NCBI GenBank assembly: GCA_965649765.1
Contig: OZ287748.1
Span: 15,314,001 to 15,378,000 of the forward strand
Origin: Bispira polyomma
Taxonomy: Eukaryota
Length of the DNA: 64,000 bases
Direction: 5' to 3'
The notes under the pieces were generated by a model, which was not told the DNA's origin, made no database searches, and saw only the letters and a list, made by a program, of their open reading frames with translations. Made by a program: the position numbers and the translations under genes. Below are positions 12,665-47,880 of this stretch, in pieces (position 1 is the stretch's first letter; every line of letters starts with the position of its first letter).

Positions 12665-12892
12665 CAGTACCTCCCTGTAGTCTGGTTAGAAGCTCCTGCT
12701 TCACAATCACAAGTTTCTCACAAACGTGGGTTCGAATCCTGTTCATGCCTTCATGTGGGAAAATTTGTCAAGTAGCTGCTGTAGGCTGGTGGCTTACAGT
12801 GCTTCACCAATGGTTTTTTCCACCATTTAATCTGGCCGTTGTGATATGACCTAAGCTGTTATAAGCGTTGTTAAACCCAACAAAAACTCAAA
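12665..12892 (+). mobile_element. tRNA-derived SINE (degenerate), MetaSINE-like 3' part
   Basis: A-box-like tagtctggtt, B-box ggttcgaatcc (~12729), then ttccacca..gatatgacc..gttaaac and an A-rich tail; shares gcttcacaatcac and atgtgggaaa with the SINE at 58526. Confidence 0.7.
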
Positions 12893-13709: not shown

Positions 13710-13987
13710 GCAACGTGGTAAATATAACCAATGATGACTAAGAATAAATTGCTAGTAGCAATATGGTAAGTATAACCAATCATAGCTAAAAATAAGAAAT
13801 AAAGCAATATGGTAAATATAACCAATGACAACTACAAAATAAATGACATGCTAGTGCAGCAATATGGTAAATATAACCAGTGATAACTAAAATTAAAATG
13901 CTACTGTAGCAATATGGTAAATATAACCAATCGTAGCTAAACATAAAAGATAAAGCAATATGGTAAAAAATAACCAATCATAGCTTA
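13710..13987 (+). repeat. Six-unit tandem array (46-55 bp period), core gcaatatggtaaatataaccaa
   Basis: Core at ~13710, 13758, 13804, 13859, 13909 and 13955, directly upstream of YR element 1. Confidence 0.9.
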
Positions 13988-14355
13988 AACAATTTAAGAG
14001 AATTAAAGCCCTAAGGCAAAGAAGTGCCGAAGTCACTGCATAACAGAAGGCATGGCTTGTCAGTCGCTAAAGATATCACCTTTACGGTAATTTGTTGACA
14101 AGCATGGGTTGTTTGAGTCACTAAGCAGAAGTATTGGGGACAAGAGTATTTGCCGCCCTTTTTCATAATTAGCTTCGAAATTGAACAAGAAGGAAGCACA
14201 AAACTTTTAATTTGGACGCCATATTGGATAATTATACATGGTGATTTTAATGAAGTGGTTTTTAGTCAAATGTTTTTAGTAATCATTGATTTTAACATTT
14301 AAGAACATTTTATATATATACCACCATATTGTGTACAGAATTGTGTTTAAAAAGA

Positions 14356-15693
14356 ATGGGCCGGACAAAGAAGACAAAAGACTTACCAGAATGCTCAAAG
14401 TGTCAAAGTAGGCATGAAAGACCCGTCGGGACAAGATGTAAAAAAGCTACAGTATCTAACATGTCATTCACAGAAGAAGCTGATGAAGATCTTCAGTCGC
14501 CACCGGATGTAACAACAACCATACAAACTGTAAGTACATCTGATAACATGTACCGACAAATCTGTGAAAAACAACAGTTAATGATGGAAACTATTATGGA
14601 ATCCGTCACTAAACTACAGCAGGATGTAGCAGTATTACAACACAGAGACCCCATAGTCATTCCCAAGGTACAGAGCATGCCTACACCACTTCCCGTAGTG
14701 TCAGCGTCACTGAGCAACAAGGACGACGGTTATACACTGCAACAACAAGAAGTTGATCGAATATCACGACCGATTCCGGCTCCACGTAGACGGACATTAA
14801 CAGATCAGATTCATCCACTGTACACGTCAGGGACCACATTAGAGCAGATAGAACAACAACCAGGGATGACACATCAGGCTTCGCGTAACACACTGGCAAA
14901 CTCGCTCATACAGTCCTCGTTCACGGACAGCCTTATGGGGGGCATTAACGACATAGTACCTACACCAGATGTTTTACATCAGTCAGCAAAGATACAAAAC
15001 GAAGTCACAGCACGACTACAACAGTATGAGAGCATGACGGCGCACGAACTACTTCAGGGTAAGTCCTTATTAAAGAGAAAGTCAGGCAGGTATAACGTGT
15101 CAGATATATGTACTACAGATCCCATTTTCCGCTGGCCTAACGAGGGGTGTGTCTCTGGTATACACAAGAAACGCGTCTCATATGAGGACATTTCTATCGC
15201 ACAATTCGCATCGGGTCAGATAGCAAATATTCTAGAAGTAAAAAATTCAACAATATCCAGAGCCATGATGAAACAGTTAGGTGACACATTGCGCGACGCA
15301 GCTAATATCTCGTGGCCAGTTGCCAAGGGCGCATATGCAACAAATATGCACGACATAGAGGAGGGCAGGCTGACATGGTTAGACGACACAAAGTGGATAA
15401 TGAACAGGCTGTCATACTCTCAGGCTTTAATGTCAACGACAGGCCACAACGCACACACATCTAGCTCTCATCAGAGCACACATTCCAGCAATTCACAGTC
15501 AACGAAAACGCGAATTCCATGTCGGCATTTTCAAAAGGATCAGTGTCATCAGACAGCGGATCATGAGAACGCTACGATGATTTTCAAGCACATTTGCAGC
15601 CACTGTTTTAGGCAAACTAAAAGAGAGAATGCTCACCCGGAGAGCAAATGCTACAAGGTACATGGTCGACCAACAACAGCAACAACACAATAG
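14356..15693 (+). CDS. gag: Gag-like ORF1 of YR element 1
   Basis: First ATG (MGRTKK) at 14356; N-terminal CSKCQSRHERPVGTRC (Cx2Cx3Hx7C); conserved KSGR/RWPNE block; C-terminal CCH plus Cx2C..H..C zinc motifs. Confidence 0.85.
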   Translation: MGRTKKTKDLPECSKCQSRHERPVGTRCKKATVSNMSFTEEADEDLQSPPDVTTTIQTVSTSDNMYRQICEKQQLMMETIMESVTKLQQDVAVLQHRDPIVIPKVQSMPTPLPVVSASLSNKDDGYTLQQQEVDRISRPIPAPRRRTLTDQIHPLYTSGTTLEQIEQQPGMTHQASRNTLANSLIQSSFTDSLMGGINDIVPTPDVLHQSAKIQNEVTARLQQYESMTAHELLQGKSLLKRKSGRYNVSDICTTDPIFRWPNEGCVSGIHKKRVSYEDISIAQFASGQIANILEVKNSTISRAMMKQLGDTLRDAANISWPVAKGAYATNMHDIEEGRLTWLDDTKWIMNRLSYSQALMSTTGHNAHTSSSHQSTHSSNSQSTKTRIPCRHFQKDQCHQTADHENATMIFKHICSHCFRQTKRENAHPESKCYKVHGRPTTATTQ

Positions 15694-15714
15694 GACAACA
15701 GACTGGCTATAGAG

Positions 15715-18700
15715 ATGACAGATGTAAAAGTACGGGATAATGTTGAAGTGCATAAGGGGGTAGATAAATACTCAAACTCTGATAATGCAATGTTTAGTAG
15801 TGACAGAAATTTAAGGGCAAAATTAGACGATAACAGATTAATATTAGATAGTGGTAACAAAGGGGGAGGCATAGATGATCAGAGAGACAAACAAAGTGTA
15901 AATAGTACGACAAATACAAATATACTACAAATAAGCGCCAAACTGAATGAGAACATTATAAGTAACAGGAACGGAAAAAGTAATAGAAATCACAGAGTAA
16001 ATAGAAGGGATATTTATTGTATAAATAGTATTGATAAAAACAGTGAACTTGATAAAGCTGAAATGGGTGGCAAAACCACCAGTGTAAATAGAAAAAATAA
16101 TACACATAATCAGAATAACAGAATAAGTACAAAAAGGTGCGAAGATAAGAACAATAGTCATGTCAAGCAGGTGTTAGAAAGTAGAAATGAAAGGTGTGAA
16201 GTAAGGACAAATGTAAAAAAGTGTGAACAAGAACAGGTGTTAGGAAATCAAAGCAAAAAGTGTAAACTGAAAGTAAATACTGATTGTTCTAGAAACAATG
16301 TAGGCATAGGAGAAAATAGTGAATATCATAGTGATAGTAATAGCATGACATTGGTAGATGTGTATATACAAAGCTATGGTGGTGCAAATGGGACACCAAG
16401 TGTTTTTTATATAGTTAGTCGAGAAAGACCTGATATGACAGGGGTATATTGGGAAACATATGTCAACAATGTACGTACATTTGAAAAGGCCACTTATCAA
16501 CTAAATAATATTTGGCCAGTTGTATATTGTATGTCTACGTATATGAATGTAATGAATGAGATCACACAGCTAAAGGTCAACAACAACACACACAAACAAA
16601 ACAAAAAGATAACAAATAATTTCAACACTTCAAAAACTCATACAAAGACAAAAGTAAGCAGTACTAGCTATTATGTGAACATAATAGATGAACTATGTCA
16701 AAACATTGACAACATACCAAAGAAACAGACAATATATGCAGAACAGACACACAAGTCTAACACACAAATTCAAAAGAACATTCAGTATGCTCGGAACACA
16801 CACAATAAGAAACTAGAAATAAGGGCAAAACTTAGGGAACGAATAAGCAGTAAAGAAATACAAGATAACACAATACAACAAAACGATAAAGAAGATATTC
16901 ATACTTCAGCAACAGTGACATCTTTATTGAATGAAATCACAAACAAAACACACAAATTAAAAAAGGAAAGAGGAATACAGAATACTGGACAGCTTACAAA
17001 CAACAGAACTAATAATAGAGCATATGAGTTCATTACCCAAGATGACCTTAATGATTCATTCAATGGACCTGACAAGAAACCAGTGGACATAAATACTTAT
17101 AAGAAATTAAAAGAAGTAAGTGACATAATAAGGAACACAGGAGTAGAAAACTACAAAGTAGCAAGAATTCCTGTTAGGTCAAGTCTGAATATACATAATT
17201 GGAAAAAATACTTACAGGACTATCACGACCAATTACTAATTCAATATTTGGAATTCGGTTTTCCGATACCATTATATGACAGAAACAGACTAAATACAAA
17301 GAACATTACGAATCACTATTCAGCGAAGGCTCACCCTGAATACATAGATAAATACTTTGATACTGAAATAAGTAAAGAGACAATAATAGGACCAATTGAC
17401 GTAGATATACATACAGAATTTCATTGCTCACCACTGTTAACTAGACCTAAGGATAATAACCAAAGACGTCTTATTTTAAATTTATCTCATCCCATAGGAG
17501 CTTCAGTAAATGACTGCACTCATAAGGAGACATATGACAAAATGAACTTCCAATTAAAACTACCAACAACAGACCAGATAGTTGATCATATAGAACAAAT
17601 AGGGGACTGTTAGCAAAGGTGGACATAGCCCACGCGTTCAGAAATTTAAAAGTTGATCCGTATGATAGTCTAAAACTAGGATACCAGTGGAACGGAAAGT
17701 ACTATATTGATCAGAGCTGGACGTTCGGTCTGACACATGGAACGGCGGTATTCATGCGAGTCTCAGATGCAATAACATATATAATGAATAAGAATGGTTT
17801 CAAAGTGTTCAACTATATCGACGATTTTATCATTTGCGAGTCACAAAATAAAGCCCATCGAGCATATGAACTATTACAAAAGATATTAACAGACGTTGGT
17901 TTACCGATAAACGAGAAAAAGTTAGTTGCACCAGCAAAAAGAGTCACATGCATGGGCATTACGATTGATATTATCAACAGCACACTGAGTATCGATGATG
18001 ATAAGTTGAAATCAATATATGAAACATGTGTGGTATTTAAACATCTTAAGAAGGTGACAAAGCATAAATACCAGTCATTACTGGGTAAACTGCTATACAT
18101 ACAACGCTGTATAAAATCATCTCGAATCTTTATGAATCGTATGTTGAAAGTATTGCGAGATCATACAAGTCAAAAAACAATATACCTGACCGAAGAATTT
18201 AAGAAAGACCTAAACTGGTTTCTGCAATTTCTGATTCAATTTAACTGAACAACAAGTTATAAAGCAAAAGACAGAAATGCAGAAATTCTCTTACACGTCG
18301 ATGCATGCTTAGAGGGCATTGGAGGGATTGCAGATGGACACGTGTTCACTGCTCCACTCCCACACTGGATAAAACAAGATCTATCCATTGTGCACTTCGA
18401 AATGATCAGCGTACTTATCGCATTTAAATTATGGGCGCATAAATGGACAGACAAATTAGTAAAAATAAAATCAGACAATGCAGCTGTGGTCTCTATAGTT
18501 CAGTCTTCAAAATCCAGAGACACATGTCTCAGCACATGTTTAAGGAATCTATGGCTAATGTGTGCTACATATAACATAGAAATCATTATAGAACACATTG
18601 CGGGAAAAAAGAACATTTTGGCTGATACATTATCAAGATGGCATGATTTGGGGATTTATACAGAACAAATTAAGACAATTATAGAAAAACAATTTACTAT

Positions 18701-18746
18701 GGAAAAAGTGCATATTGAAATGTTTATTCTAAATGACAACATATAA
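15715..18746 (+). pseudogene. pol: pol (RT + RNase H) of YR element 1, with a frameshift at ~17610 and a nonsense TGA at 18246-18248
   Basis: SPLLTRPK, RRLILNLS, KVDIAHAF, YIDD, RNase H HVDAC/HFEM/SDN/LADTLSR split over three ORF pieces. Confidence 0.9.
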
Positions 18747-18752
18747 TTTCAG

Positions 18753-19732
18753 ACACACCCAAGACACTACAGCCACTACTACATAAAGCCATAAAAAGAA
18801 TAGGAGAGAGCCATAGACCACGGACGAACAGACAATACGACAGACACATGAGACTTTACATGGCATTTATAGTTTATCACAAGATTCAGCATGCATTCAA
18901 TTTCTGCAGAGTTCTGGGTTTCCTAGAATACCTACAACAGAATGGTATATCATATAAAGTCATTAACAACTATTTGGCCTCGATCAGATATCAGGCGAAA
19001 CGTCTGAATATCACAGACTCTCAGCTTTATGACCCAAGAATAACTTTGTATCAAAGATCTTTAGTACGGAATAGTACTTTCAAGCCCACCCCAAAAGGAA
19101 TTTTTAACCTCAAACAATTACACACAATTTCCAGACAATGTCAGCTAACTACATTTCCAGAACTGTACAGAACTGCATTCTTATTTGCATTTTTTGGATT
19201 TCTCAGGATTTCAAACCTTACACCTCAGTCACTTACCACTTTTGACCCAACAAGACACATTACACGATCAGATGTGATATTCGAAAAGCCAGGAATACAC
19301 TTGATACTAAAATGGTCAAAAACAAACCAAAATAGGACAGAACATGACGTAATACAATTACCTACCCTGAGAAATCCTTGGCTCTGCCCAGTAACAGCAG
19401 CAAAAGCACTAATGAATAAATATCCATTACAAGGTCAAGCACCATTACTAGCAAATCCTAAAAATGGAGGTAAATGTGTCACAGATACACAACTTAGAAC
19501 AGTATTAAGAACGATACTAACCCGAAGCAACATACCTCACACAGGTCACTCCTTTCATTGTTTTCGAAGGTCAGGGGCATCCCTGGCTTTCAACAGCAAT
19601 GTAAAACTTCAGAACATCCAGAAACACGGCTGTTGGAAGTCGGATGCTGTTTGGACATATTTACAGGCAACGTCACATGCAGCATCAATAATTCCTAACA
19701 CTTTTGCTGCTCTTATCCCCCCATCTTTCTAA
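18753..19732 (+). CDS. Tyrosine recombinase of YR element 1 (start placed at the predicted splice acceptor; first ATG 18848)
   Basis: FFGFLRISN (Arg I), KWSKT (Lys), HCFRRSGA (HxxR), HGCW, WTY (catalytic Tyr). Homology to element 2 extends upstream of the first ATG. Confidence 0.9.
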
Positions 19733-21009
19733 ATTTTTGGCTTTTGGCATTTTAAAAATTTTAAATAGTAAAATTTTTCTGTATAGTTGTACAAAAATTT
19801 GTAAATCTGTAAATAAATATGACTCCAAACAGCATCTGAATTTTCATATGAATATATATCTTACACTTCCCCCCCGACTGAGTGTTAAACCCACAATCCT
19901 TAGATATTCTACAAATATGTACAAGGGAGGAGGGTTGGGAGATTTTTGATGTTGTTAGTTTGATTTCTGACTTATCAGCGAGATTATAAGAAAGGGCGCG
20001 AAACGCTGAGGAGAGTAGAGGTGTTATCTAAATGCAGCATTGGGGTGAGAAGTGACTGTGATAAGCAAGTAGTTTTGAAATAGAAGTACAGTAAAGTATA
20101 GCATTTCCGCGGCTGACTAGCCATGCTACTTCGTGGCAGTGACGAAGAAACGTGTTAGTGATACAGCATGTGTTACTCACAGAACCTCTGTCCATTGGCA
20201 ACCAGTCAACATCACTGAAATGTTATTTTGTTTTCCTTCGGTACCATGTAATAGGAATGTTAGTACACCAGACTCTCCTGTTTAGGAAAATTATAATTTA
20301 GGCTGTTACTAATTGCTAGAAGTCTGTATCTGTAACCTATTTCCGTTTTTTTCCATTTGCTAGCAATGGTTTCCTCTCAGGGTCAAAAGGACAGTAATTG
20401 AGGTAATATTTGTCTCTGCTAAAATTATTTAGAGGGCTATTCATCAGACATAAACGATTTATTAAATTCAGTCATTCTCTGTTTTGGTAAAACAATGCTT
20501 TGAACCAAAGAGCTAGCAGGAGATTGATTTCGTGTAATGTCATAGATTTTCTAGCCATAGCTTATTAATAAGAGCTTTTTTTATTGACTGCTACTACTTC
20601 AGATATTTTTACTAGTGTCAATGAAATTATATTATATTCCTGATGAAGCTATAAATCTAATTAGAAATACTTTAAAGTCGGAGTATTTATTGATTTTTGA
20701 AGTATGTGTATAGCACAAAATTGATGTATTTCATCCTGTAAAGCATTTGTTCTTTAAAAATTAATAATTATACAAAATAACATTCATCGTTATCCAAATA
20801 CAACAGCGTGTAGACTTCTTACACAAAACAGATTAAACCAGAAGTTAAACCAGGGACCTTCTGGCTAATGCCAGGGCATAGAAGACCACAGTGCCCCTTC
20901 TTTAACCCTGCAGTTGGTGAGACTTTGTTAATTAAAAACGAACAAGTTGGCAGAAATTAGTTTAATTTCTATATTATTTTCGACATAGTATGTACAAAAT
21001 GTGGTTTAC

Positions 21010-21250
21010 ATAAGGTTAAAGCCACCTAAGTTGATTTTTGAGTTTAAGTGTGACTTAAACACATTGATATTAAGTTGACCTTAACTTGAATTAATGTTGA
21101 ATCACACTAAAATAAATGAGTGAGTAAAATACCCATTAAGTTTAAGGTCGCCCTAACCTGATTTTAAGGTTAAGCTTGACTAAGCCAATATTAGCTGCAA
21201 CCGTATATAAAGGTTGGTTTGAGATAATTGAGTTAAAGGTGGCTAAACCA
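21010..21250. repeat. Cluster of degenerate TAAGG-NNN-CCTTA palindromes (resembles 3' regions of YR elements 3 and 4)
   Basis: taagttgacctta (~21071), taaggtcgcccta (~21143), and repeated taaggtt. Confidence 0.45.
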
Positions 21251-22804
21251 ATATAACTGTAACTCTACACATAAATAAATATGGGATATTAATATTTTGA
21301 GGGTTTGTCTAGGTTCTGTAGAAAATGCTATATCGTTGTAAATTAACCGAAAAACCCCAACAAAACCCTTCTACCTTTATCAAACTAGTTTTAATCTTTG
21401 CCAGAATCAGTTTACTTCACCATTACTTTACCATTTTATTCAGTTTATATATATTATAGTTTTATTAAAAATGTCTATAACAAAAATGTTAAAATTCTAA
21501 TAGCCATTATTAGACCCTCTAAATCCTAGATATTTCTGTATGATAGAGATTATTCATAGCTTATTTTGTGATAATTCAAGTAATTTTTTCAAAGAGACTT
21601 TCTGGGGTTATATGACAGATAAACTAAGATATTTCCCTGATCCTCACTTTGATGACACGTTGTTTCCATTTTCACAGAGGTGCTATACTTTACCATCTTC
21701 TTCTGTAGCTCTTTAGGGCTATGGCAAAAAGGTTTAAAGACCAGAAATTACTCCTTATGGTCATCACACATTTAAGGTTTGTGGCCACAGTTCCACCCTA
21801 GAATATACACGTATGTTTTAGACTACTATTTGATTAGGGCAGATACTTGGCCAGTAATTGACTTACTGTCAGCTAAGCAGTCTACAGCTTGAGGCTCTAT
21901 CCAAAGAATGTCTTGGTCTTTACCTTAATATTTGCTATTAGTCCTCTTGTTAAGAGTAAATCTAACACTAAGCAAAGATCCCTTTTACTGTCACTGGGAT
22001 TATATCCAAAAGTATTGCAACATGCTTCAAATTTTGTTTTTTCAATGGTAATTTTTATTGTTTGTACAAATTGCATCTTTCATAAATTTGAAGCAGTTTC
22101 TAGCAAAGAATTTGACACTTTAAAAGATAATTGTATTTCTTTTTTCACACTGACCAGGAAGAGGTTTTGAAAGCTGGCTTTTGGAAAATAATTGAACTTG
22201 AAACAATCCAACCGTTTTTGTAGGCCCTTAGTTTCCCCATGGAAAGTAATTCAGTGGTAATCACATGCTAAAATCCATTTTATGCATTTTTGATAGCTTT
22301 TGAGAAAAACTAAAAAAGTGCAGCTTTTCCTGATGAAGTGGATTGTTAAATATTAATAGCTTTCAGCCATGTACTTTTTTATAGCTTCTAAAACAAGAAA
22401 AAAGTTCTTTTCTCAATTGCTTGTTAAATATTAACATAGAAACTTGAGAAAAAAAATTTCGAAACGTATTTGTGTTTCAAAAATTTTTTTTCAGATGTGC
22501 CATTTTCACATTCTATTGACCATTTTTATCAACAGGAATGTAAATATATTCTCTTTTACACAAGTTGTGATTAAGATATCCCTTGTTTTGATTTTTGTCT
22601 AGATAAATGTAGTGTATGTGAAATATATGTCTCTTGTCCCAAATGCTGAAAACTTTGAAAAGGGTAATATTTTTTAAAAAGGTCTTGTTTCATAACTCCT
22701 TAGCTTAAATATGGTTGTGGTTTGGTTCATTAAGCGATCATATTACCAAATGCATCACCTATAATGTTATAAAGACAAAAATGATAAAGAAATAGTGAAG
22801 CGGA

Positions 22805-23143
22805 GAGAGCTCTCAATAGAGTGAATAACTCCACCACCACGATGCAAAAGTGCCACAAAATAAAAATAATCCAAAAAAAAAAAAAAAAACATAACAAAAA
22901 AAAAGATTTCTGGATCACCTCTTCGATTGAATGTACCAAATTATAAGGAAGTCTCCCTTCATCTGTGCACCATTCCTCCATGTAAGTTGTTTAAGTAGTT
23001 TTTGTGTAATCCTGACAAAGGAGGTCTCCCTTCATCTGTGCACCATTCCTCTATGTAAGTTGTTTAAGTAGTTTTTGTGTAATCCTGACAAACAACTAAG
23101 CCAACCAGCCAACAACAAAACAAACCTGCTTGCTATAGGTAAT
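22805..23143 (-). mobile_element. HINE/Helentron-like non-autonomous element with an internal 73-bp tandem duplication (22945-23092)
   Basis: Near-identical duplicated gtctcccttcatctgtgcaccattcctc..gtaatcctgacaaa; the end aatcctgacaaac..ccaaccagccaac..aggtaat is the reverse of the HINE-type start. Confidence 0.55.
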
Positions 23144-24424
23144 ATAGTGACAGTTTCACATATTATTTTTGAAAAATTTAAATAGAGTCTACTTAAACAA
23201 AAATCAGATATGTTTGTAAAGGCAGTAAAGCCAGTAAAAATTACCCATTAAAATATTTAGAATTATTGTTATTTGAGTATATTTTGATATCTGAGGGGTA
23301 AACAGGGGTTGTCTTTTAAAAAAAGATACAGTCGCACAGTGTGAAATACTCATATTCATATGGCCACAATATACTTAGGAAAATCTGACACCCCTCAGTT
23401 TGGACGGGTCAATTGCTTCCAACCAATCCATGACAACTTATTTTTAAGAAGGCCACACCCTTTTCAATGGCAGGGCTCATTTTAGAAAGAAAACAACATG
23501 CACCTTATAAATAGATGTGATGAGGTAATTAATTTTAAAATCATTAACCTACATATTGCTGGACTAAAATTACATCGTATTTGTTAAACATTCCCTGATC
23601 TTCAAGCCACTATGAAGTATTGAGTTTGTAATAGCAGGGAAATTGAATTAGTTCAGCTATTTGAGATTTTGAATTGCATTTACATTGTTCATAAAGGTGT
23701 TGGTCAAAATGTTTGTTTTTTTAAATTAATGGAATTTTCCTGATTGAATCAACAATTCTGGGATGGTGCTTGACCTGGTATTCCTTTCTATATGCAACAG
23801 CTATGTATGAGTTTTGAGTATTGTTGTTCCCTCATTGGGTGGTCAGGTGTTTCCTTCATAAATCAGATCTCAGCAAATTACTTGTTAAATATATGTATAT
23901 TTGAAGGAACAATGGTGCAATCATCAAATTAAAAATGTAACTTGGAAACTTACTGTTACATAAGTTTTACACATTGTGAAAATATTTTTAATGAAAATCA
24001 GACAAAGCAGGTTAGTGTATACCCTTGGCGGCAAGTTGTGTCATCTCACTCATGGTAACAGTACTGGCAATGGTCTTCAGGAATCCTTGTAAGAGCTGAT
24101 TGGATGAAATACTGGTCTGGTTGCACAAAAGTAGCCATGGCATCCTCTTAATGTGAAACACAGTCTGGGCTGGGAACTTAACAGTGGCCCACTTGCAGAC
24201 TTTCTGGGTGTAATGTCTTGACCTTTGGCAGAACTGAAAGGAGAAAAGGAAAGGTATTCTGGAAGAATGACATGTCATAGGGCAGGTACATTAAGAAATT
24301 GTTACCCAAACAAACATGTGTCATGAAATAAAGGAATTGCAAGAAACCAAATTTAAAAAAACAAACAAAAAGAGCAGCATAAAAGAACACATTCAGGACA
24401 TGACAGAGGGCAAATAAGATGTAT

Positions 24425-24980
24425 ATGATATAGCAACTTAGGTACATGGCATACAGCAACACATATCAAATACAAAGTACATGACATATACAGCAACACG
24501 TACAAAACACATGTAAGTACAACATGTACAAAAAACATGGAGGTATGGGGCACAGCTAAAGGTATAAAACACATACATTTACCTGGCATACAGCCATATG
24601 TACAAGACATATACAGGTACCTGGCATACAGGAACAGGTACAAAAACAGATGAATGTACATGAAATACAGTCTAAAACATGTACATGGCATCGATCAACA
24701 TGTACACAATGCATTAGGTACATGGCATACGGCAACATGGCCAAAGACATACAAGTATATGGCCTACAGCAACAAGTACAACAACACATACAAGGACATG
24801 GCATACAGGAAGAGGTATGAAAACAAATGGATGTACATGGCATAATGTTTGACCTACAGAACACATACATGTACATAGCATACATCAACACGTACAACAC
24901 AAATTAAGTACACGGCATACAGCAACATGTACAAAAACAACCAATATAGGTACACGCATACAGCAGCATGTACATACAGT
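24425..24980. repeat. Degenerate minisatellite (tacatggcatacagcaacatgtacaa-like units)
   Basis: Recurrent ggcatacagcaac / gtacatggcat; accounts for the Cys/Met/Tyr-rich spurious ORFs. Confidence 0.8.
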
Positions 24981-25904
24981 AACATTATAGTTGACTGAGA
25001 AATGTGTTAAATAGGGTGTGTGCAGTTCAAATAACAATGTTTAACTAAAATGGTAAAACATAAGCAGACTCTATTTTAATAAACACACTAGTAATAAAAT
25101 GATATAGAAAATCATTCAAATAGAACGGTAAAGAAAACTTAACCGGTGCTCTTGCACACTGACTAGGATATGCGCCACAGAGGATGCCTGGTCATCGATT
25201 GTGGCGCTATAGAAGTAAAAAACATTAACATTAACTTGGGAAATGAACATGGAGCTACAGTTCTATATTACATGAAGCAGAAACACAGATGGAATTGGCA
25301 GCACTGAAATTTTATCTTTTTTTTGAAAAAAGTAGACTTTACAGATTGTATTTGCTATTAAACCATATTATTAAAAATAATTTTTAGTTAATTAGTCCTA
25401 AATTTGAAATCTGATATGACTTTCAGAGTAAATTGAATCTAAATCAGTCTAAACCTAAATAGATATAATTGTTGTTTTATTCTAGTAGTTCAATTGCTAT
25501 CAGCTCCACTACCCCTTGCATGAAAGTCTCAATAAATTTTATACATTCTTTGCTACATTCTATAATATTTATACAATGCTGTTTACACTAGTCGATTATA
25601 CAATCTATTGTTATACACTTTGATAATTACATTTAAGTTTAACAGCACTTTAAGTTTGATGCTCACTTTAAGGTTATAATATTATACAATTTAGGGTTAT
25701 CTTAATGATTCGACTTTAAAGTAAACTTATTATGCACTGATAGTGCTTATTAATACAGTTTCATTTAAGGTGCTCTTACTGAATTCAAAACTACCTTATT
25801 CTTGCACGAATGTGCTTAAATTGCTTAAATAATGTGACCTTAACTTGCATAAGGTTTAACTACACAAAATTAAAATACTGATACTGTAAAGTACATTATT
25901 CTAC

Positions 25905-26819
25905 GCTGACTGTATATACCTCCACACACAGTCGGACGTCTAGGTGCCATGATGCTTTATCTGATAAACTGGGATGTTTGCGTTACAAGCAAACGTCACA
26001 CCTGAACGTCAGAACGTTTAGAAGGTAAAAAAATGTGGATCAAGCCCTAATTGGGCATTCAATTTTGATAAAGTTTTTCTTATTCGTGTGTCTGTAAGAC
26101 TTGCCACCCTGCAGCAATTCTGTATTGGAAAGGAGGTTTATTCTCTTGTGGATCATACATTCTGAATATGTCAGATAGGGCTGTAAAGGGGCAAAGTACT
26201 GAATTGAGAAGTTTAGGGAGGGTGGTGATATTTACTTTATCTCTCTGTTGCATGGTCTTAGTCTATTCCAGCACAAACTTGACCATGGTTTTGGTAAAAA
26301 AATACATCACCACCTGCTAGGTGGCGTGTTCTAAGTGCTAATTGAATGGGGGCAATGTTCGAGATTATTAGGAATCCAAAGTGGGCCAAAAACACGGCTT
26401 TAAATACTTTGCCTATGTACAGGTTTTCTCATAATTTGATCAATTTCTCCAAGGTGGTTATATCTATGATGTTTTTGCTTACTACAGCCATAGGCCTTTT
26501 AATTCTCAAGGATTTTATAAAATACCTAATTTTGGTATGTTCTATACATTGGTATGGAAGGTCATACATTATGCATTTGGCCTAAATGCCAGAAACGTAG
26601 TTGCTTATCATATGCACTGTGACATTACTAGTCACCAAACATTCCAGAAAATATAATATCAATATTGCCAATATTGCTTGCACATTGATATTTTCAAATT
26701 TTATGTTTAGATGAAAACAGAAAAATACAAAAGTCCCAACAGTACTTGGCATTTCTGTGTATTGGGACAGAAGGCTTTTCGGAGTCTCAGGCTGGCTTGT
26801 CCAGAAAAGTGGGCCAACG
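25905..26819 (-). pseudogene. YR pseudogene of element 4
   Basis: Broken frames: LRKAFCPNTQK, FLECLVT..ISNYVSG, FKAVFLAHFGFL, TKTMQ, LCPF, TF*RSGVTFA, HGT*TSDCVWRYI. Confidence 0.8.
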
Positions 26820-26944
26820 CTACAAAAAAGCATAGTATCATTAATTATTATAATATTATTACTGGCAAGCCTAGGCTAGACTGTAAACTCTATACATAAC
26901 ACATATTTTATAACCAATTGACACACATATGATATAATACATTG

Positions 26945-37731: not shown

Positions 37732-40530
37732 ATGAAGAAGGACAGAAAGAACAGTCATTTAATTGCTAATAAGGTAATAGAGAATGATAAGCAATTAATT
37801 GTCGATAAGAACAATTACAAACATATTGAGACAGTAAATAATGCTAAAATTGATACAGTTGTTACCCAATCTGGGAATGATATGTCAAATTATTACAGAG
37901 TGATAAATGTCATTAATGGAAATAATGTAAGTCATAATGTTCTTGTTCAAGGTTTTCCAGATATGGGCTATAATGTACACAACACAGATGTGTCACAAGC
38001 AGACCATAAGGGAAATAGTGTGAGTCATAACGTTCTTGTACAAGGTTCTACAGGTAGGGGCCATAATGTACCCAGCACAGATGGGTCACAAGCAAAACAT
38101 AAGAACACTGGTCAGTACGTCAGATCTGATGGCGCTAAAGATCTAAAATATAACCAGGTATATATGAACAACAGCAGTAAAACATGTGAAGTAAGAATAG
38201 ACATCACAAATTGGAATTACATGAATAACAAGGGGGAATTTTCTTCTCCCATAGTGTATATTCACAGTCATAACGGCTTCTTTAAAAATTTCTACTGTCA
38301 AATCTGGGATCAGGCTGCTGGTGTTCATTATTATGACCAAATCGAATTTAAACCTTCTGGTTTACTAACAATTTTAAATTCGGTTTCTGCACTGTTACAA
38401 TATCAGGAATGTCAAGACGTCCAGTATGGTATTGAATACAATTATGTTTCTGCAAAAGACAAACAACAAGCGAAGGACATTAAATTGTTCTATGACAGAG
38501 ACATTACATGTTTGGACAGATATAACATTGACTATACTACATATATGGAACAAATTATTGACTGCATGATTGATGACTGTAAAGCGACTGATAATAATAC
38601 AGATAATGTAAATAATGATGAATGTATAACAAGGAACAAGGAGACCGGCAACATGACCGGGAAAAATGAAACAGGTAAGAGTCGTCCGCTTTGTGATGTC
38701 ATCACAAATCCGACTTCTTCAGAACATTTTAGGGACATGCTTAAAATGGCCAATCTACCTGTTATCAGGAAAACTACTGACATTAACAATCCCAATAAGG
38801 TTGTAGGGTTCATAGCTCTGTCCCCCACAAATTTTGAGTTTGTAGGTCCTGACAGGCAGGCAGTTACCATTAAGGATATTTCAGAAATTTCAAGGGTTGC
38901 TGAAATCATTAAGGAAACAGGGCTTCCCAATTATAGACAGGCTAGGATACCTATCAACTCAGGTTTACATATCAAAGCATGGGAGAACTTATTACAGGAA
39001 TATCCTGACCAGTTATTAATTCAATACATTAAGTTTGGATTCCCTCTGTCTTTGACACAACCAGAGGGTATAAGAAATCATAAGGTAACTAATCATTTCT
39101 CAGCTTCTCAGTACCCTGATGCAGTAAGGCAATACTTGGAAAAGGAAACATCATTGGGGGCCATGTTGGGGCCTACTAGGGACATTCCGGACCCTCAATA
39201 TAATTGTTCACCACTTCTTACTAGGCCAAAAGATATTACAAAGCGTCGAGTCATATTGAACCTTTCTTACCCAAAAGGGGCCTCGGTTAATGACAATGTT
39301 GACAGGGACAATTTTGACGGAGTGGCGTTTGTATTAAAGTTTCCAAACATAGATAACATTACAGAAGCAATTCGTAATACTGATGATCCGGTACTGTTTA
39401 AAATTGACGTGGCACGCGCGTTTCAAAACTTACGTGTTGACCCAGTCGACGCCATGAAACTAGGAATATTTTGGGACAATGTATACTATGTTGATCCGGC
39501 AATTGCGTTTGGTTGGGTCCACGGCAGCGCGGCCTTCCAGCGATGTACCGACGCAATAACCTCATTTATGGGTAACCATGGTTACCAAGTATTCGGATAC
39601 ATAGACGATTACGTTTGCGTTGCTTCAAAAGAACATGCTCAAGCGGGTTTTGATATGCTATATGATATCATGATGAAACTAGGTTTACCTCTTAACGCGG
39701 ATAAGCTTACTCCTCCCACTAAGAAACTTACGTGTCTCGGCATTGACTTTGACATTACAGCAGGCACCATTAGTATTCAGCTTGAGAAATTACAGGAAGT
39801 TCACAAAACATGCCTCGAAGTGCATAGAAAAAAATATATTTCTAGAAAAAAATTTCAATCGCTCCTGGGCCAATTGCTTTATATTCATAAATGCGTCGTC
39901 CCTGCCAGGATATTCATTAACAGATTATTAGCTGCTTTTAGAAATAATAGCATGAACAAAAGATTTAAGGTCAGCAATGAAATGCAAGCGGACATCCAAT
40001 GGTTTATAACATTTTTGGAAAAATTCAATGGGATAACATATATACAAAAAGATATTATCTCACACGCAAACGAGTTGCATTTGGATGCTTGTCTCACCGG
40101 ATTCGGGGGAGTATGGAATAATGAGGTATATGCCACCCCGTTCCATGATATTTTCAGCGGCAAATTGACAATTGTTCATTTGGAAATGTTGAATATCATC
40201 ATCGCATTAAAAATTTGGGCCGAACAGTGGAAACACCAGAAATTGAGCATCAACTGCGACAATATGGCTGTGGTTCTGGTAGTTGAATCACAGAAAACTA
40301 GAGACAAATTCTTAGCACTTTGCTTAAGAAACATATGGCTAATTACAGCAGCATATGATATTACACTTGAGATTAAACACATTCCTGGGAAAAACAACAT
40401 AATTGCTGATGCATTATCTAGAATATATTCAGTAAGAGGCATTGACAATAATTTATTGCAATCAATTAGAGATAATAATGTTTGGAGGTCAGTCCCACTT
40501 GAATATTTTAACTTAAACTTGACAATTTAA
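37732..40530 (+). CDS. pol: pol (RT + RNase H) of YR element 2 (932 aa)
   Basis: SPLLTRPK, KIDVARAF, FGWVHGS, YIDD; RNase H LDAC, HLEM, CDN, IADALSR. Confidence 0.95.
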   Translation: MKKDRKNSHLIANKVIENDKQLIVDKNNYKHIETVNNAKIDTVVTQSGNDMSNYYRVINVINGNNVSHNVLVQGFPDMGYNVHNTDVSQADHKGNSVSHNVLVQGSTGRGHNVPSTDGSQAKHKNTGQYVRSDGAKDLKYNQVYMNNSSKTCEVRIDITNWNYMNNKGEFSSPIVYIHSHNGFFKNFYCQIWDQAAGVHYYDQIEFKPSGLLTILNSVSALLQYQECQDVQYGIEYNYVSAKDKQQAKDIKLFYDRDITCLDRYNIDYTTYMEQIIDCMIDDCKATDNNTDNVNNDECITRNKETGNMTGKNETGKSRPLCDVITNPTSSEHFRDMLKMANLPVIRKTTDINNPNKVVGFIALSPTNFEFVGPDRQAVTIKDISEISRVAEIIKETGLPNYRQARIPINSGLHIKAWENLLQEYPDQLLIQYIKFGFPLSLTQPEGIRNHKVTNHFSASQYPDAVRQYLEKETSLGAMLGPTRDIPDPQYNCSPLLTRPKDITKRRVILNLSYPKGASVNDNVDRDNFDGVAFVLKFPNIDNITEAIRNTDDPVLFKIDVARAFQNLRVDPVDAMKLGIFWDNVYYVDPAIAFGWVHGSAAFQRCTDAITSFMGNHGYQVFGYIDDYVCVASKEHAQAGFDMLYDIMMKLGLPLNADKLTPPTKKLTCLGIDFDITAGTISIQLEKLQEVHKTCLEVHRKKYISRKKFQSLLGQLLYIHKCVVPARIFINRLLAAFRNNSMNKRFKVSNEMQADIQWFITFLEKFNGITYIQKDIISHANELHLDACLTGFGGVWNNEVYATPFHDIFSGKLTIVHLEMLNIIIALKIWAEQWKHQKLSINCDNMAVVLVVESQKTRDKFLALCLRNIWLITAAYDITLEIKHIPGKNNIIADALSRIYSVRGIDNNLLQSIRDNNVWRSVPLEYFNLNLTI

Positions 40531-40536
40531 TTTCAG

Positions 40537-41513
40537 GTTCTACACCAATTACACAGCAGCTTATGGACACAGCATGGGACAGGATTAATACTGCTTTAAG
40601 ACCAAAGTCTAATTCAGCATATGAAGGACAATTTAAAACATTTCTAGCTTTCTTACAGTTCTCAGGTATCCAACACATTACTATACATGCTGTAATTGCC
40701 TTTTTGGAGTATTTGGCACAAAATCTTTTATCTCCTGGAGCCATAAAAAATTACATGGCTGCTCTTAGATTTATTGCGAATAAATATTCATGGGACCTCT
40801 CTCCTTTCACGCACAATTCAGTGTCTCTTTTCCTCAGGAGTTTATCTCACAATTCTACATTTAGACCCAAACCTAAGGGGATTTTTACTATTCAGCAATT
40901 ACAGCAGATTTCAGCTACATGTGAGATTTTGGATGACCCAATTTTATTTAGGGCAATATTCTTGGTGGCTTTTTTCGGGTTTTTAAGGCTATCAAATATA
41001 GCTCCTCATTCTAGGGCAAGCTTTGATCCATCCAGACATTTCCTCAGACAAGATGTGGTTTTCGGTTATCCGGGAGCCCACATCATATTAAAGTGGGCGA
41101 AAAACTTACAAAATAGAACAGATACCCATATTATTCAAATTCCAGCCCTTCAGAACAAATTACTTTGTCCAGTAAGGGCTTTAATGGCTCTCCTCCAATC
41201 TAGGAAATTGATCAATAGCCAACCTCTATTTGCACAGGGCAAGGCACCTTTTCACACAATAGTGGCCTCACACGTTAGAACAGCACTGCAAACAGTTCTT
41301 TCGCACATTGGACTGCAATATACTTCCCATGGATTTCACACTTTCAGAAGGTCGGGAGCCACTTTCGCTTTTAACAATAATGTATCCCTTCAAAACATCA
41401 TGTCCCATGGTCTTTGGAGATCTTCTGCTGTGTGGACCTATCTACAAAAAACCTCCCAAGCAGCTTCTGTGGTCCCTTTGACTTTTGCGGCCACCATCCC
41501 TTCTGTTTTCTAG
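40537..41513 (+). CDS. Tyrosine recombinase of YR element 2 (predicted acceptor at 40536/40537; first ATG 40563)
   Basis: FFGFLRLSN, KWAKN, HTFRRSGA, HGLW, WTY: complete catalytic set. Confidence 0.95.
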
Positions 41514-41520
41514 TTTGGCT

Positions 41521-41750
41521 TGGGGCTAAAAATTTTACTTTTATTTTAAACATTTTTAAGCTTTTCTTATACTATGTTAAGGTCATATGTAAATATATAT
41601 ATACTAACATGTAAAAAATAAATACTCAAACTGAATCTGTTACTACCTTCTTCTCATATTTACAACATATCATGACCTTATTGATCGCAACTTGACCTTC
41701 AACAATCTTGACCTTTGATTTCAATTATATCCCTCCAATTATGGGGACTG
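41521..41750 (+). repeat. Split direct repeat B1 (230 bp)
   Basis: Identical by inspection to 42665-42894; directly abuts A2. Confidence 0.95.
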
Positions 41751-41966
41751 TGGTAAGCAGGACACCTTTAGGGGACTGCTACGTCAGTCCACACACTTTT
41801 ACTCTGCTACCTTAAATTCCATCAAGTTAGAACGACTTTTATTAAGCCATCTGTCCATCCCTACACTAGCCAATGAGAGGGCTCGAATGCTACCTTCTTC
41901 CCGCAAAAACATAAAGCCACCATATTAAATTCCGAATTTGAAGGAACAACAAGTTCATTTTAAAAA
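41751..41966 (+). repeat. Split direct repeat A2
   Basis: Copy of A1; the B1|A2 junction ggggactg|tggtaagc equals the joined element ends. Confidence 0.95.
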
Positions 41967-42664
41967 CCCACCTCCTCCCCTCACCTCAGCATAAGGTATA
42001 GGTAATGTGACTTATTTCCATTGCCGTCGGCCTTTCTGTGTGCATTCAGAATGAACACATGTAAAGACGCGATTATAAGGTTGAGATGACTAGAAATTAT
42101 TTATGTTTATTTAGCTGCCTCTCTGTGGGCATTTATGATGTACACATGGTAAAGACGCGATTATGTGTCAAGACAGGCGTTATGGATGACTAAACTGGAC
42201 AAATGGTCGTACAGACTTTGATTTGACAGAGTTTAAGCCCCCTTTTTATGGCTTAAAAGACAGGACGGACTACGCCAAGTTATGAGACATTTAAGGGTGT
42301 CTGTAAGGATAAATATAAAGTAGGTTATATGGGTATGAAAAGAAAGATCTTCAACGATCATTGTAACTAACACTGGCTGTTGCCTTGAATGAGCTATGAA
42401 GGATAATGTACCAATATGTAACTCGATATATGTGAAGTACTAGATATTCTTGTCATGTTCAATATGTATGGGCAAGCCCCTTTGTAAACCACTGTAATAT
42501 TATGTGGATGGTATATATAATGCAAAGTTAATATGATAAAGGCTAATTTATGTGCAATGCAATATGATATAATATCAGCACATGTTATTGTAGTATTTTA
42601 GACGTAACTTTTTTTTTTTATATGTGGCCTTTATTTAAAGTTGGTGATGATTATAGCTTCATTG

Positions 42665-42894
42665 TGGGGCTAAAAATTTTACTTTTATTTTAAACATTTT
42701 TAAGCTTTTCTTATACTATGTTAAGGTCATATGTAAATATATATATACTAACATGTAAAAAATAAATACTCAAACTGAATCTGTTACTACCTTCTTCTCA
42801 TATTTACAACATATCATGACCTTATTGATCGCAACTTGACCTTCAACAATCTTGACCTTTGATTTCAATTATATCCCTCCAATTATGGGGACTG
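42665..42894 (+). repeat. Split direct repeat B2 (230 bp)
   Basis: tggggctaaaaatttt...aattatggggactg, same as B1. Confidence 0.95.
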
Positions 42895-43864
42895 AGAAAG
42901 TCAAGGCAAATGAGGCCCATTAACAATAGCCTTATCAAATTGGGTCACTCAGGATCTTTTGTTGTAACTAAAAGGTAATCACATTTACCACTGATGCATT
43001 TAGCTTGTAATCCTGTAAGTTTTGTTCAGAGAGACGAAATGTGTAGAAGTTGGAGCCAAAGTATCAGCAACAAATATGTTGCGGAAAAAAGAGGTAAAAA
43101 ACCATTTATGTATCACACTACAAATGTCTGCAATATGCTGACAATGTTTTATGTACAGAAGTAGGCTTTCACCAGATTAGACATAGTTTACCTATTGAAG
43201 TATTTTTTGGACATGTGTATGTCGTCCATACACGTTATCGGTACATGTCAAGAAAGCAAAATTCTAAATATTTTATACTGATTATATGGTTTTGAAGGCA
43301 TAACTATCTCAGTGCCTCTTGGGATGAGTGTGAATTTTTAAAGACAACAAAAAGATCTCAATTGGGAAATGTTAAAATTGTATTCTATGTTAGATTTCTA
43401 CTTCTATGTACATACTCAGAATAAGGCCACCTTAAATTAAAGACAAGTCACTTAAGGTGACCTAAACTTGAGGTGAATGTTACTTTTAGCAGAGGTCAAT
43501 TTATGGTGACCTTAACCTAAGGTGAACTTAACTTTTATTAGGATTGGTCATTTGGGTTGACCTTAAATTAAATTAAGGTTGTGGTCATTTGCGTTGATCT
43601 TAGGTTTAGCTTAGTACATTGTGTAAACCTTTGGGGTCACTTGTAGTGGCCTTAGTGCTAGTTAACTCTGCCAAAGTTATAAACTTTTCAAGTTAAGTTA
43701 AATACAAGTACATGTAAAAGTTATATTTAAGTATACAATGTTTACGTAAAAGAGTAAATGCAATATAATTATAAGGTGGCCCTAAATATAGACATGTAAA
43801 ATTTTAGTATAAAATATATGATGGTTTTGTATTATAAGTGAGAAAAAAGAGACCCCAAGCCCAA

Positions 43865-44613
43865 CTAGTAAGTAGTAGTGTTTGCAAGAGCACCTTTGAA
43901 GGCCAGTGCCACCTGGGGAGAGGTATTATGGTCTTGGTTGATATATTTCCACACACAATCCGATGTCCAGGTGCCATGGGCCTGGATATCCTGTAATGGG
44001 ACCTTTTGGTTGAATGCATATGTGGCACCTGAGCGTTGGAAGGTGTGGAAGGTTATGTTTTCTGCCTGACAGTGTACCCGTGTGAGTATGGTTTGTAGGT
44101 TTCTTCTGACTCTTGTGTCTGTGAGTGGGATCCAGAGTGCATTGTGTTTAAACTGGAATAATTGTGAGTTGCTGGATCCAGGTGTGATGGCTAATAAGTT
44201 CCTAACTGCTGTGACTGGGCAGAGGGAGGAAAATGGTAGTAATGGTAATTTGATGATTCTGATTGTATTTTTTGACTGGAGTGTTTTTGACCATTTAACA
44301 ATGATGTGCATGCCAGGAGGTGCAAATAGGATGTCACCTCTGGAAAGCTGCTGAAGGGGGGGTGTAGCCGGCTACACTATGGCCGAAAGGTAATCTGCAA
44401 TGGAAAAACTAGAGACATTGCTTGTAACTAATACTTCTAAAAAGGAGAGGATAACTTGTGGAGTAATTGTTGTGAGGCTGATGTTTGTGAAACAGGTAAA
44501 GGCCAGGAAAACCCTGAAAATGTTGGTATAAGCCTTTTGTGTGGAAGGTCTGAAGACTTAGTGGGCCCTGGAGGCTGCCTTGGCAGCCATGGATGCCAGT
44601 TAAGGTGGTAAAC
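43865..44613 (-). pseudogene. YR pseudogene of element 3 (nonsense codons; internal deletion near 44360 removes the Arg-I motif)
   Basis: N-part FRPSTQKAYTNIFRVFLAF; C-part ORF 43865-44311. Confidence 0.85.
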
Positions 44614-44619
44614 CTACAA

Positions 44620-47090
44620 TTTTAATGGACCAATTAATATTCATGGTACCATCATTCACATTTATCCATTGTGGTTTTGCTATGTATTCTGTTAACCTGT
44701 TAGGACTATCAGTGTACATATGCCATCTGGAGAGGAGGTCAGCCACTGCATTATTTTTGCCGAAAATATGAATTGTGCTAAAACTGATATCTGCCATTGC
44801 CGTTTCCATATAAATATATCTGGCCATGGCTCCCAGTGTATGATCTTTTGTTCTACCTGAGTTTAATATGGTAACAACGGCTTCATTGTCATAGTGTATT
44901 AGTAGTCACTTGTTGCCCCACTACTTTTTCCAGAGCCTGACTGCAACTATTATATTAGCATCTCTAGGTGAGTAATGTGGTAGCTTTCATAGCCCCTGGG
45001 GAGTTGTTTTTTGTATACTTGATTGTTACAGCGACCACCTAAACCTTCTAAACAGGCATCTAGTTCTATATAATCCGTAATTGGTCTGTGATCGAAGAAT
45101 GCTCTACCATTAAACGAAGGGAGAAATTCACAGAACCAGTTAAGGTCTTGATGGAATTCAACCCCTAGGTTGATTGTGTGTGCAGTGTGGGCTGCGTGTA
45201 ATGCTTCCAACATTCTGTTCAGAAAAACTCTGGATACATCTAGATATATAGAGCAATTTGCCTAATAGTGATTGCAATTTTACTTGTCAGGATTTACACA
45301 TCTTTAAGATGTCATTGAGTTTTTCTTGGGGAACTGAAACTGTAAAGTTTTCCGTATCGATGAGGCCACCTAAACAGACTACTTGAGTGCTTGGACGCAC
45401 TATTTTCATTTTGCTAATTTCAAAACCTAGCTCATGGAGAGTGTCATGAAGGAGGTCAAAAGAACATTGTATTTTGAAAGGAATGCCAAAACCTATGATA
45501 TCGTCAGTGTAATTTATGACGTCACAGTCGTGACATTTCATACTGAAGCGAACTGCGTCACTAAGACGCTGGAATTTCGCACTACCATGGGAATACCCGA
45601 AGTGTAGGCATGTATCGACAAAGTATTGCTCATGTTTGAGACCTAGCAGATTGTAATCTGCAGGGTTGATTTTTACATGCCCGAAGGCCTTACTTATATC
45701 TGTTTTATAGAGCAAGGACCCCCGGCCAAGCTGACATATTTTTTGAGTAATAGTGTCCACTGTTGGAAGTGTTAACACAAACGGTGTATGTAATATTTGT
45801 CTCTGGACACGGCTGCGTTTACTGAGTGACCTTGAGTGAAACTCAAATCTATGATGACCATTCTATGGGGTGCACCTGGCTTTTCACGGGTCATGAATGG
45901 TGATACATGTAGATTGTCACAAGGGGGATCTGAGTAGGGACTCAACATGGCCCCGAATTTTGATTCTTCTTCTAAATAAGCTTTAATGTCATTGGGGAAA
46001 TCCCTACCCGATTTATGGTTTTCTTCCTGGTGGACTAAGGGATTGTTCTTGTCGATGTCTAGAGGGAAACCGTATCTTATGAGATATTTCATTTGGGTGT
46101 CCCAGTAGCCCTGTAAGTAAAAATCCCATTTATCAGCTTTAAGCTGGGATTTTACCTGGATTTGTTCCCCCATGAAGTTGGGGATTTTTGAGTTTTTAAT
46201 TTTTTCGTGAATAGTAAATACTGGGTTGGAACTGATATTTTTGAGATCAAACACGGGAACTGTTAAGTCTCCCAAAGGAATAAAGCCAAATTTATCAGGC
46301 GTCTGCCTGTCCCGATTTTGGAAACAATTGTTTTGTTTGGTTAACTTTATAAGTTCTTATTCTTAAGCTTTGCATGTAACTCTAAGTCATATTTGTCTAT
46401 GTTTTGTGTTTCACACTGACCCCCTTGATGAATAGGTTTGGTAGCCTTGTTATGCCTTGCCTTTGTCATTTTGGTTGTGCCATTAGTGTGTTTAACTTGG
46501 CTGTCACTTGAGGGATTGTTTTGTTCCTCTTTATGTTTTTCCCCATCCCCCTCAGTGAGTGTTAGTAGGGGGCAAATCTATTGTGGTCTCAACTATTGTT
46601 ATTACCCCAATTAGTGCCAATGCCTCCCAATTGTGGGAGTTGGGAAGTGCGACTTTTTGGACAATAGGGTCTGGTAAACAACCCCGAGGACTTTATAGTA
46701 CAATGGGAGGGGGGAAGGGTGTTTTGCTGACACTTTGTTCCCTCTGGTGGGAGTTTGTTAAGCCCCCAATTCTATGAGCTGGTGGCACGTCAATTGCTGA
46801 AATAATCTTAGGTACATTTGACTCCACACATTTTGGTCTGAATTCTTGGCGACCATACATTTTACGGGTGAGCGATAGTTGGAGGTACTGGGTGGTTTAT
46901 TTTTCCCTTTTAATGTTTTACCTTTGACTGAACTGAAACCCCTTGAGACAGCTTGAGCATAGCTTTTGACTTTTATTTTGGACCAGTCCGCTCTCCAATT
47001 TTCGCTCTCCCCATTTACACACATGTTACTTTGTACCGGTCTACTGGCTCTATACATGACATTTGTATTAACACTTTCTGTGTTTACCAA
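44620..47090 (-). pseudogene. pol: pol pseudogene of element 3
   Basis: ORF fragments 45772-46275, 45287-45778, 44950-45213 and 44600-44827 are collinear with pol of element 2; the 5' boundary is approximate. Confidence 0.85.
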
Positions 47091-47149
47091 ACTTTTAACG
47101 TTACATTTACTATCAGGACCTGAAGATCAACTTTTGGGCACTGCAAAAC

Positions 47150-47880
47150 TGTGGGAAAGAACGACCTGTAGTGAAGCAATTAGAACACACATGTGTATAT
47201 AATTGCCCTTTGTTTTCATGGTCTCCTTTTTGGGGACAAATGCCTTATGAAAAATTTTACAGGGGACGGATTTCTCACTACTTTTCTTGGTTGAGCCTAC
47301 GGACCCAGTTTGATTTTGGGTTATTGATTTTGGGTTATTATTTAATCATGGCACTAAACACTGCGACCCATTACGCCATTGACAGTGAATCATATGACAA
47401 GCGAGACTTATTGTTACCCCCTAAAGTTCTGGGGCCAGCTACCTGTCTTTTAACCCAAATAGTATCTGAACCACCACGTTGTGAGCGGAACGTACCTGAT
47501 TCATTTACTCGTTGTAATTCCCTCAGGTGGGCGTCAACTGCAGCCTGAAGATCACTGGGCTGCCTAAGCGTCTGAAGTGAGGGAACCACTATGTCATTCA
47601 ATGGAGTTGACCCAGCGCCTGCTACTGTTGTTGCTTTCACCGACACTGGGATCTGTTACACCGTAATCTGTTCACGAGCTGGCTCTGTATTGCTTTTAAG
47701 TTCATATTTGTCCATCCTGGAGCTCAGATCACTTAGCTGTTTTAGTATTAATAGGTTGATCTCGTTTGAGGAGACACTACCTGAGTTTGTACTGTTCACC
47801 ATGGAAATACATTTATCATTTGTAGGCTTTTGGTGATGTCCACCACACGCCTCACAGTCATAAGTTTTTCTGGGAGCCAT
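47150..47880 (-). pseudogene. gag: gag pseudogene of element 3 (internal deletions)
   Basis: N-terminal Cx2Cx3Hx7C, DIVVPSLQTLR..LQAAVDAHL..SGTFRSQRGG, C-terminal CPQKGDH..HVCSNC. Confidence 0.8.

Follow-up and report, generated by a model that had tools for sequence, protein, structure and literature searches.

How do tyrosine-recombinase (YR) retrotransposons express a recombinase gene that has no start codon of its own? Explanations have so far been only guesses. The question is raised by a window of 64,000 nucleotides (nt) from Bispira polyomma (GCA_965649765.1, contig OZ287748.1, positions 15,314,001 to 15,378,000), the whole stretch of DNA that was analysed. The genome, of an animal, measures 1.035 Gb and has 14 large contigs; the window is part of its contig C1 and contains four Ngaro-like YR retrotransposons, El1 to El4. 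In this study, we found a phase-1 splice donor in gag and a phase-1 splice acceptor at the start of YR, both conserved across the families of these elements in the genome. These results suggest that YR is expressed from a spliced mRNA as a fusion to the N-terminal part of Gag, which gives a testable mechanism in place of a guess.

The splice sites were first checked in the four elements of the window. A sequence-only reading of this DNA had proposed one phase-1 donor and one phase-1 acceptor for each element, and all eight were found. The donors are CAGG/GTAAGT in El1 (15058/9), CAAG/GTAAGG in El2 (37072/3), TCAG/GTACGT in El3 (47496/5, minus strand), and GCAG/GTAATG in El4 (30224/3, minus strand). 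The acceptors are TTTCAG in El1 (18752/3) and El2 (40536/7), ATTGTAG in El3 (44614/3), and TTTTTTGTAG in El4 (26820/19). Joining El1 exon 1 (14356-15058, plus strand, 234 codons and 1 nt) to its YR exon (18753-19732) combines 703 and 980 nt into a stop-free frame of 560 amino acids (aa). El2 exon 1 (36079-37072, plus strand, 331 codons and 1 nt) and its YR exon (40537-41513, with a Pfam match to Phage_int_SAM_1), of 994 and 977 nt, give 656 aa, also stop-free. The predicted intron of El1 (15059-18752, 3,694 nt) holds the C-terminal half of gag, a TAG at 15691-15693, and pol with reverse transcriptase (RT) along with RNase H; this pol is disrupted, near 17586-17613 by a change of frame and at 18246-18248 by a stop, and its own stop lies 6 nt before the acceptor. 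The predicted intron of El2 (37073-40536, 3,464 nt) holds the C-terminal half of gag, a TAG at 37684-37686, and an intact pol of 947 codons (37687-40530) that is in frame with this TAG. The joins of El3 and El4 fall in the YR frame despite decay, with a stop four codons after the acceptor in El3, whose predicted intron is 2,882 nt. The first in-frame ATG of El1 comes 32 codons after the acceptor, and a stop in the same frame precedes the acceptor by 5 codons. In El2, an ATG lies 9 codons past the acceptor, so this element taken alone can do without the splice. A second phase-1 GT of similar consensus score lies 27 nt downstream of the El2 donor (37099/37100) and is not conserved across families.

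Conservation was examined in a genome-wide sample. Searches with YR and RNase H gave 7,500 to 14,390 candidates each, and 120 loci were hand-picked down the ranked lists. With the four window elements, 124 loci were analysed. Grouping at 80% nucleotide identity sorts them into 50 families; across the first 100 YR residues their median amino-acid identity is 32%, and a quick tree shows several deep clades. A phase-1 AG was present 62 or 59 nt before the conserved YR motif R-P-x-T-x3-Y in 116 of the 119 loci with an anchor and in 48 of the 50 families, compared with an AG background of 6.0% of coding positions in the same elements. This count omits five loci, namely El4 (misplaced anchor) and El3, L114, L140, and L150 (no usable anchor), and the AG counted in L063 is probably spurious, from a local duplication. 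Acceptor phase, which the sequence-only reading expected to be non-random, is fixed in these 48 families, as is acceptor position. All 48/48 have T at -5 together with a pyrimidine at -3, and TTNYAG stands at the acceptor in 46 of the 48 AG-bearing families, as against 0.35% of coding positions. The encoded residues vary, with seven kinds before the site (S/V/T/A/L/P/I) and four at the join (G/D/E/A). Stops in the YR frame numbered 162 in the 30 codons upstream of the acceptor and 0 in the 30 codons downstream, although the choice of loci as good YR matches favours a clean downstream frame.

The donor was analysed in the same 124 loci; a gag anchor was missing from 15 of them, and stops lay near the donor in 10 of the remaining 109. 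Where the gag frame was clean (99 loci), the GT that scored best upstream of the gag WP motif was in phase 1 in 95. At a threshold of at least 6 of 9 matches to a donor consensus, a phase-1 donor was present in 42 of 44 families, compared with 70 of 1,175 equal windows of pol (6%); the donor assigned to L134 is doubtful. Position +3 is A in 42/42 and +5 is G in 35/42. Glycine in the donor window is encoded by GGT in 45 of 50 cases, whereas conserved gag glycines use GGT in 13 of 27 (KSGR) and 4 of 23 (WPNEG); the background among Gly codons is 464/1,477. In the codon after the donor, Lys is AAG in 26 of 27 (background 695/2,241, 31%) and Thr is ACG in 8 of 8 (background 158/1,615), and both codons give the +5 G. 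From these codon counts, the constraint at the donor is one on DNA. The sequence-only reading had placed the donor in one shared Gly codon. The phase-1 donor in gag stands, but a strictly homologous codon does not, because its distance from the WP motif varies by clade (59-74 nt).

Among YR matches with unusually long open frames, we found a copy that lacks the predicted intron (L157, G000:C1:95305346-95311799). In this copy, the N-terminal half of gag is joined directly to YR, without the gag C-terminal half or pol. It is 98.3% identical over exon 1 and 98.8% over exon 2 to one intact element on C9, and it is missing exactly the 3,323-nt GTAAG..TTTCAG segment of that element, with 2 nt of microhomology. 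Both breakpoints match splice sites predicted beforehand from other elements. L157 runs from repeat A to repeat B, like 5 intact-type family members among 27 YR-side loci checked. It is most likely a spliced RNA that was reverse-transcribed and inserted.

The earlier proposal that YR comes from a spliced subgenomic mRNA is supported by the GGT codon, the fixed acceptor, and the exact intron-less copy. On this sequence evidence, splicing from gag to YR is very probable, and the fusion of the Gag N-terminal half to YR (Gag-N/YR) is probably the main form of the recombinase. Several observations weigh against this reading. L157, a copy in the assembly, is single (1 of 44 loci, 1 of 150 rows, which is the same copy, and 0 of 40 further gag loci) and was joined by no YR open frame longer than 378 aa in 300 more rows. 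Proteins spanning the junction were not found in protein libraries. The loci were chosen for being top YR or RNase H matches, the families share ancestry, and the anchor distances were taken from the data before counting. A branch-point-like motif is barely enriched (26/48 families, 18.7 expected). An ATG lies near the YR start in 23/48 families, El2 among them, and a short -1 overlap of pol and YR is kept in 34/48. Other ways of making YR were also weighed.

The splice could be real but secondary, with YR arising mainly through reinitiation or an internal promoter, using either a nearby ATG or a near-cognate ATT that overlaps the pol TAA, and with the spliced RNA minor or regulatory. The rarity of intron-less copies would fit this, as would the ATGs within 13 codons downstream of the YR start in 15 families and in frame upstream in 8. 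The ATT of TAATT is also in the YR frame in families with 6-nt spacing, and coupling of stop and start at UAAUG is known from the SART1 retrotransposon. However, no ATG position is conserved, and in 25/48 families no in-frame ATG occurs before codon 17 of the YR exon. The distance of the pol stop shifts (5, 7, 8, 9, 16, or 33-91 nt), while the AG stays fixed relative to YR. Phase 1 is kept at both splice ends, something that only translation of the joined frame would require. A secondary role for the splice is therefore unlikely.

A second alternative is that a programmed -1 frameshift in the pol/YR overlap yields YR within a Gag-Pol-YR polyprotein. Such a frameshift in a small overlap was proposed for Ngaro YR by Poulter and Butler in 2015, as quoted in section 17 of PMC13003380. 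In 32/48 families YR is in the -1 frame and the pol stop precedes the AG by 6 nt, as this proposal would expect, and pol and YR share one open frame in L090 (G000:C9:6394271-6403233, 1,267 aa) and in the database proteins P0001 and P0002. Nevertheless, a slippery heptamer falls within only 2 of the 34 overlaps, and neither an overlap nor a slippery site is conserved as a signal for frameshifting. In 14/48 families the junction is in frame 0, in frame +1, or a gap of 33-91 nt, and the AG is still kept. Of 16 clade B loci, 13 have the canonical heptamer A_AAA_AAC in the gag frame where gag meets pol, so a genuine slip site is visible in these elements where there is one. The open frame of L090 is probably a stop loss, because its family mates have a stop at that place, though frame-0 families could also allow readthrough. 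Neither the conserved donor nor L157 is explained by a frameshift, which makes a polyprotein origin of YR very improbable. Least credible of all is that protein conservation or base composition produced the sites as by-products and that L157 is a chance DNA deletion or assembly error, since, despite an AT-rich genome and a single intron-less copy with microhomology, synonymous positions are fixed at the donor but can vary at nearby conserved glycines, the bases at both sites hold while the residues they encode differ, and both L157 breakpoints had been predicted beforehand.

In the splicing model, the donor in gag and the acceptor at the YR start would yield a spliced subgenomic mRNA and, from it, a translated Gag-N/YR fusion. 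Gag and Gag-Pol would come from the unspliced RNA, which would also be the template. Pol may be reached by UAG readthrough in clade A or by a -1 slip at A_AAA_AAC in clade B. In clade A, TAG-G was found at the gag/pol junction in 37 of 42 loci, and among the 9 families whose pol is unbroken it is in frame with pol in 8; in-frame TAG-G resembles gammaretroviral readthrough. One element group thus has two styles of gag-pol recoding (window positions 15691-15693 and 37684-37686, and L031-L110 and L111-L150). Two clade B loci, L136 and L150, hold gag and pol in one open frame of 1,219 and 898 aa. Splicing would spare YR two rare recoding events in a row.

We next examined the predicted product. 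Exon 1 encodes a basic N-terminus and, in most clades but not that of El2, a C-x2-C-x3-H-x7-C motif, together with coiled-coil-like heptads, a variable linker, and a conserved helix that ends at the donor. El1 exon 1 has all of these parts, while El2 exon 1 is without the N-terminal zinc motif. The WP core and the C-terminal Cys/His region fall in the intron. The sequence-only reading had the splice removing the Gag zinc motifs and all of pol. This was only half right, because the C-terminal Cys/His region and pol are dropped but exon 1 mostly keeps a zinc motif of its own. In a structure model of the L157 open frame, a confident Cre-like recombinase begins right after the join, at the first helix past the acceptor. 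The Gag helix before it was modelled at low confidence where the alignment lacks depth, so tethering or targeting by the Gag part stays a hypothesis. Speculatively, the retained zinc motif, coiled coil, and helix may bring YR into the Gag particle or guide the choice of target. The YR exon is Cre-like over its whole length (Foldseek E 5e-9 to 1e-8) at a sequence identity of 12-17%.

Database searches were made with both halves. Gag matched no Pfam family and had no informative Atlas match, and YR had no PDB sequence match below E 0.07. Longer YR homologues comprised two Pol-YR frames and no Gag-YR frame, and among the best 120 of 322 homologues of near length none exceeded 348 aa. A two-half profile of Gag-N and YR gave 22 weak matches, none covering both halves. 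Among listed sequencing runs, none of RNA contained the element. The 37072-40537 joint was absent from three runs of unrecorded type with DNA-like cover, an absence that is uninformative about splicing. In a database protein of 134 aa (P0137), the YR start follows the gag core instead of gag-N; it may reflect a deletion, a gene-model error, or a second donor.

On gene content and repeats, the elements are Ngaro-like YR retrotransposons of the order DIRS. Genes for gag, RT/RNase H, and YR follow one another on one strand with little overlap. A YR with Phage_int_SAM_1 and a Cre-like fold stands in place of a DDE integrase. Pol contains only RVT_1 and RVT_3 in Pfam and ends about 35 residues past the last RNase H motif, with no methyltransferase after it. 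El2 is a complete element with split direct repeats in the order A1-ORFs-B1-A2-B2 at 99-100% identity; many relatives share this form, and El1 has a reduced A1-ORFs-B form. PAT-like elements of the same order were rejected since, for all the split direct repeats, there is no methyltransferase, and DIRS1-like elements, which are defined by inverted terminal repeats, an internal complementary region, and a methyltransferase, were rejected because the repeats are direct and a methyltransferase is again missing. The Ngaro-like plan, in the accessible text of the published descriptions, has gag, RT-RNase H, and YR all on the same strand, lacks a methyltransferase, and shows A1-ORFs-B1-A2-B2 repeats and a short pol/YR overlap (PMC9210276, PMC4157794, PMC3266345, PMC8547959, PMC3783388). 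The window elements share its gene order, repeats, and overlap, but where published Ngaro elements are given a proposed frameshift for YR, these carry a conserved gag-to-YR intron. The element type is known. No description of a gag-to-YR splice was found in a literature search that lay outside Repbase, supplements, and subscription papers, including the 2015 review and Goodwin and Poulter 2004.

Expression of a 3' gene from a spliced subgenomic RNA, with the unspliced RNA as genome, is familiar from retroviral env and foamy-virus pol mRNAs, and the logic proposed here is the same. Unlike env, the 3' gene would be the integration enzyme, and because the donor is placed far inside gag, 130-330 Gag residues would be fused to this enzyme. 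Ty1/Copia elements make a subgenomic gag RNA by splicing, according to the accessible part of PMC5580714, and in both cases the host spliceosome would set protein ratios. The Ty1/Copia splice yields Gag alone and drops the enzymes, whereas the splice here would skip pol and yield a Gag-enzyme fusion. From Cre-type recombinases, which have the same fold as the YR exon, the elements are set apart by the predicted N-terminal Gag extension. If correct, the model redefines the integration enzyme as a Gag-YR fusion, which is relevant to biochemical or genome-engineering use and to element annotation. It would also place a retrovirus-like balance of spliced and unspliced RNA in an order lacking long terminal repeats (LTRs) and a DDE integrase.

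Related sequences from elsewhere were also examined. A metagenome contig with a YR 46% identical (L235) has CAAG/GTAATT in gag and TTTGTAG at -62, both in phase 1; its pol stop lies 334 nt upstream of the acceptor, and position -62 is kept. Among 120 listed database YR proteins, 19 of the 20 that were long enough have G or D at the join, preceded by S in 17. L240 has an open reading frame for a GDSL-like hydrolase after YR (weak Pfam match); no hydrolase ORF was seen in the window elements, whose YRs lie on a long branch away from L240 in a quick YR tree. Its gag contains CAAG/GTAATT in phase 1 as the joint-best-scoring GT. At the pol/YR overlap, a phase-1 CAG occurs in L240 and in three relatives; this signal is only a lead because it is confounded by a conserved L-S-R-F-Q protein motif. 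It is possible, though we hold this tentatively, that splicing of Gag-N onto YR is the ancestral and general Ngaro mode, the hydrolase-bearing lineage included, that the -1 overlap reflects an acceptor buried in the end of pol, and that the fused zinc motif and coiled coil load YR into the particle and help target choice. Hackl et al. linked ORF1 to target preference in Cafeteria Ngaros, where, in the accessible text, ORF1 loss goes with altered preference (PMC8547959). Targeting by the Gag part, if true, would explain that association.

The remaining features of the window concern element structure and neighbouring sequence. El1 occupies 14028-19869 (plus strand), lacks A2-B2, and is 99.5% identical to L075. 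Such A1-ORFs-B copies are common (L168, L175, L176, L185, L193, and El1). Opposite-strand A/B repeat pieces of the family of L157 adjoin El1 near 13500-13640 and 19960-20150. Both these copies and these pieces are consistent with recombination between repeats. In El2 (plus strand), A1 (35761-35973) equals A2 (41751-41966) at 99%, and the 3' repeats (41521-42894) consist of B1 (41521-41750), A2, a spacer, and B2 (42665-42894), with B1 and B2 100% identical. El3 (43310-48195) and El4 (25540-31109), both on the minus strand, are decayed and their limits are approximate. The RT of El4 is interrupted by an AT-rich, MITE-like insertion of about 1.15 kb (27965-29121) with inverted, internally repetitive ends. 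On C3, eight equal gag matches, seven of them about 29.4 kb apart, mark a large tandem array containing an element (G000:C3:15669732-15880201). A dispersed repeat of about 260 nt has inverted copies at 51957-52212, 57560-57657, and 58523-58780, and also occurs inside the gag of L133 and beside L131; ARAGORN found no tRNA in it. Two intron-less globin ORFs starting MGC (2101-3039 and 33637-34560) lie in a duplicated segment about 31.5 kb apart and are 82-92% identical.

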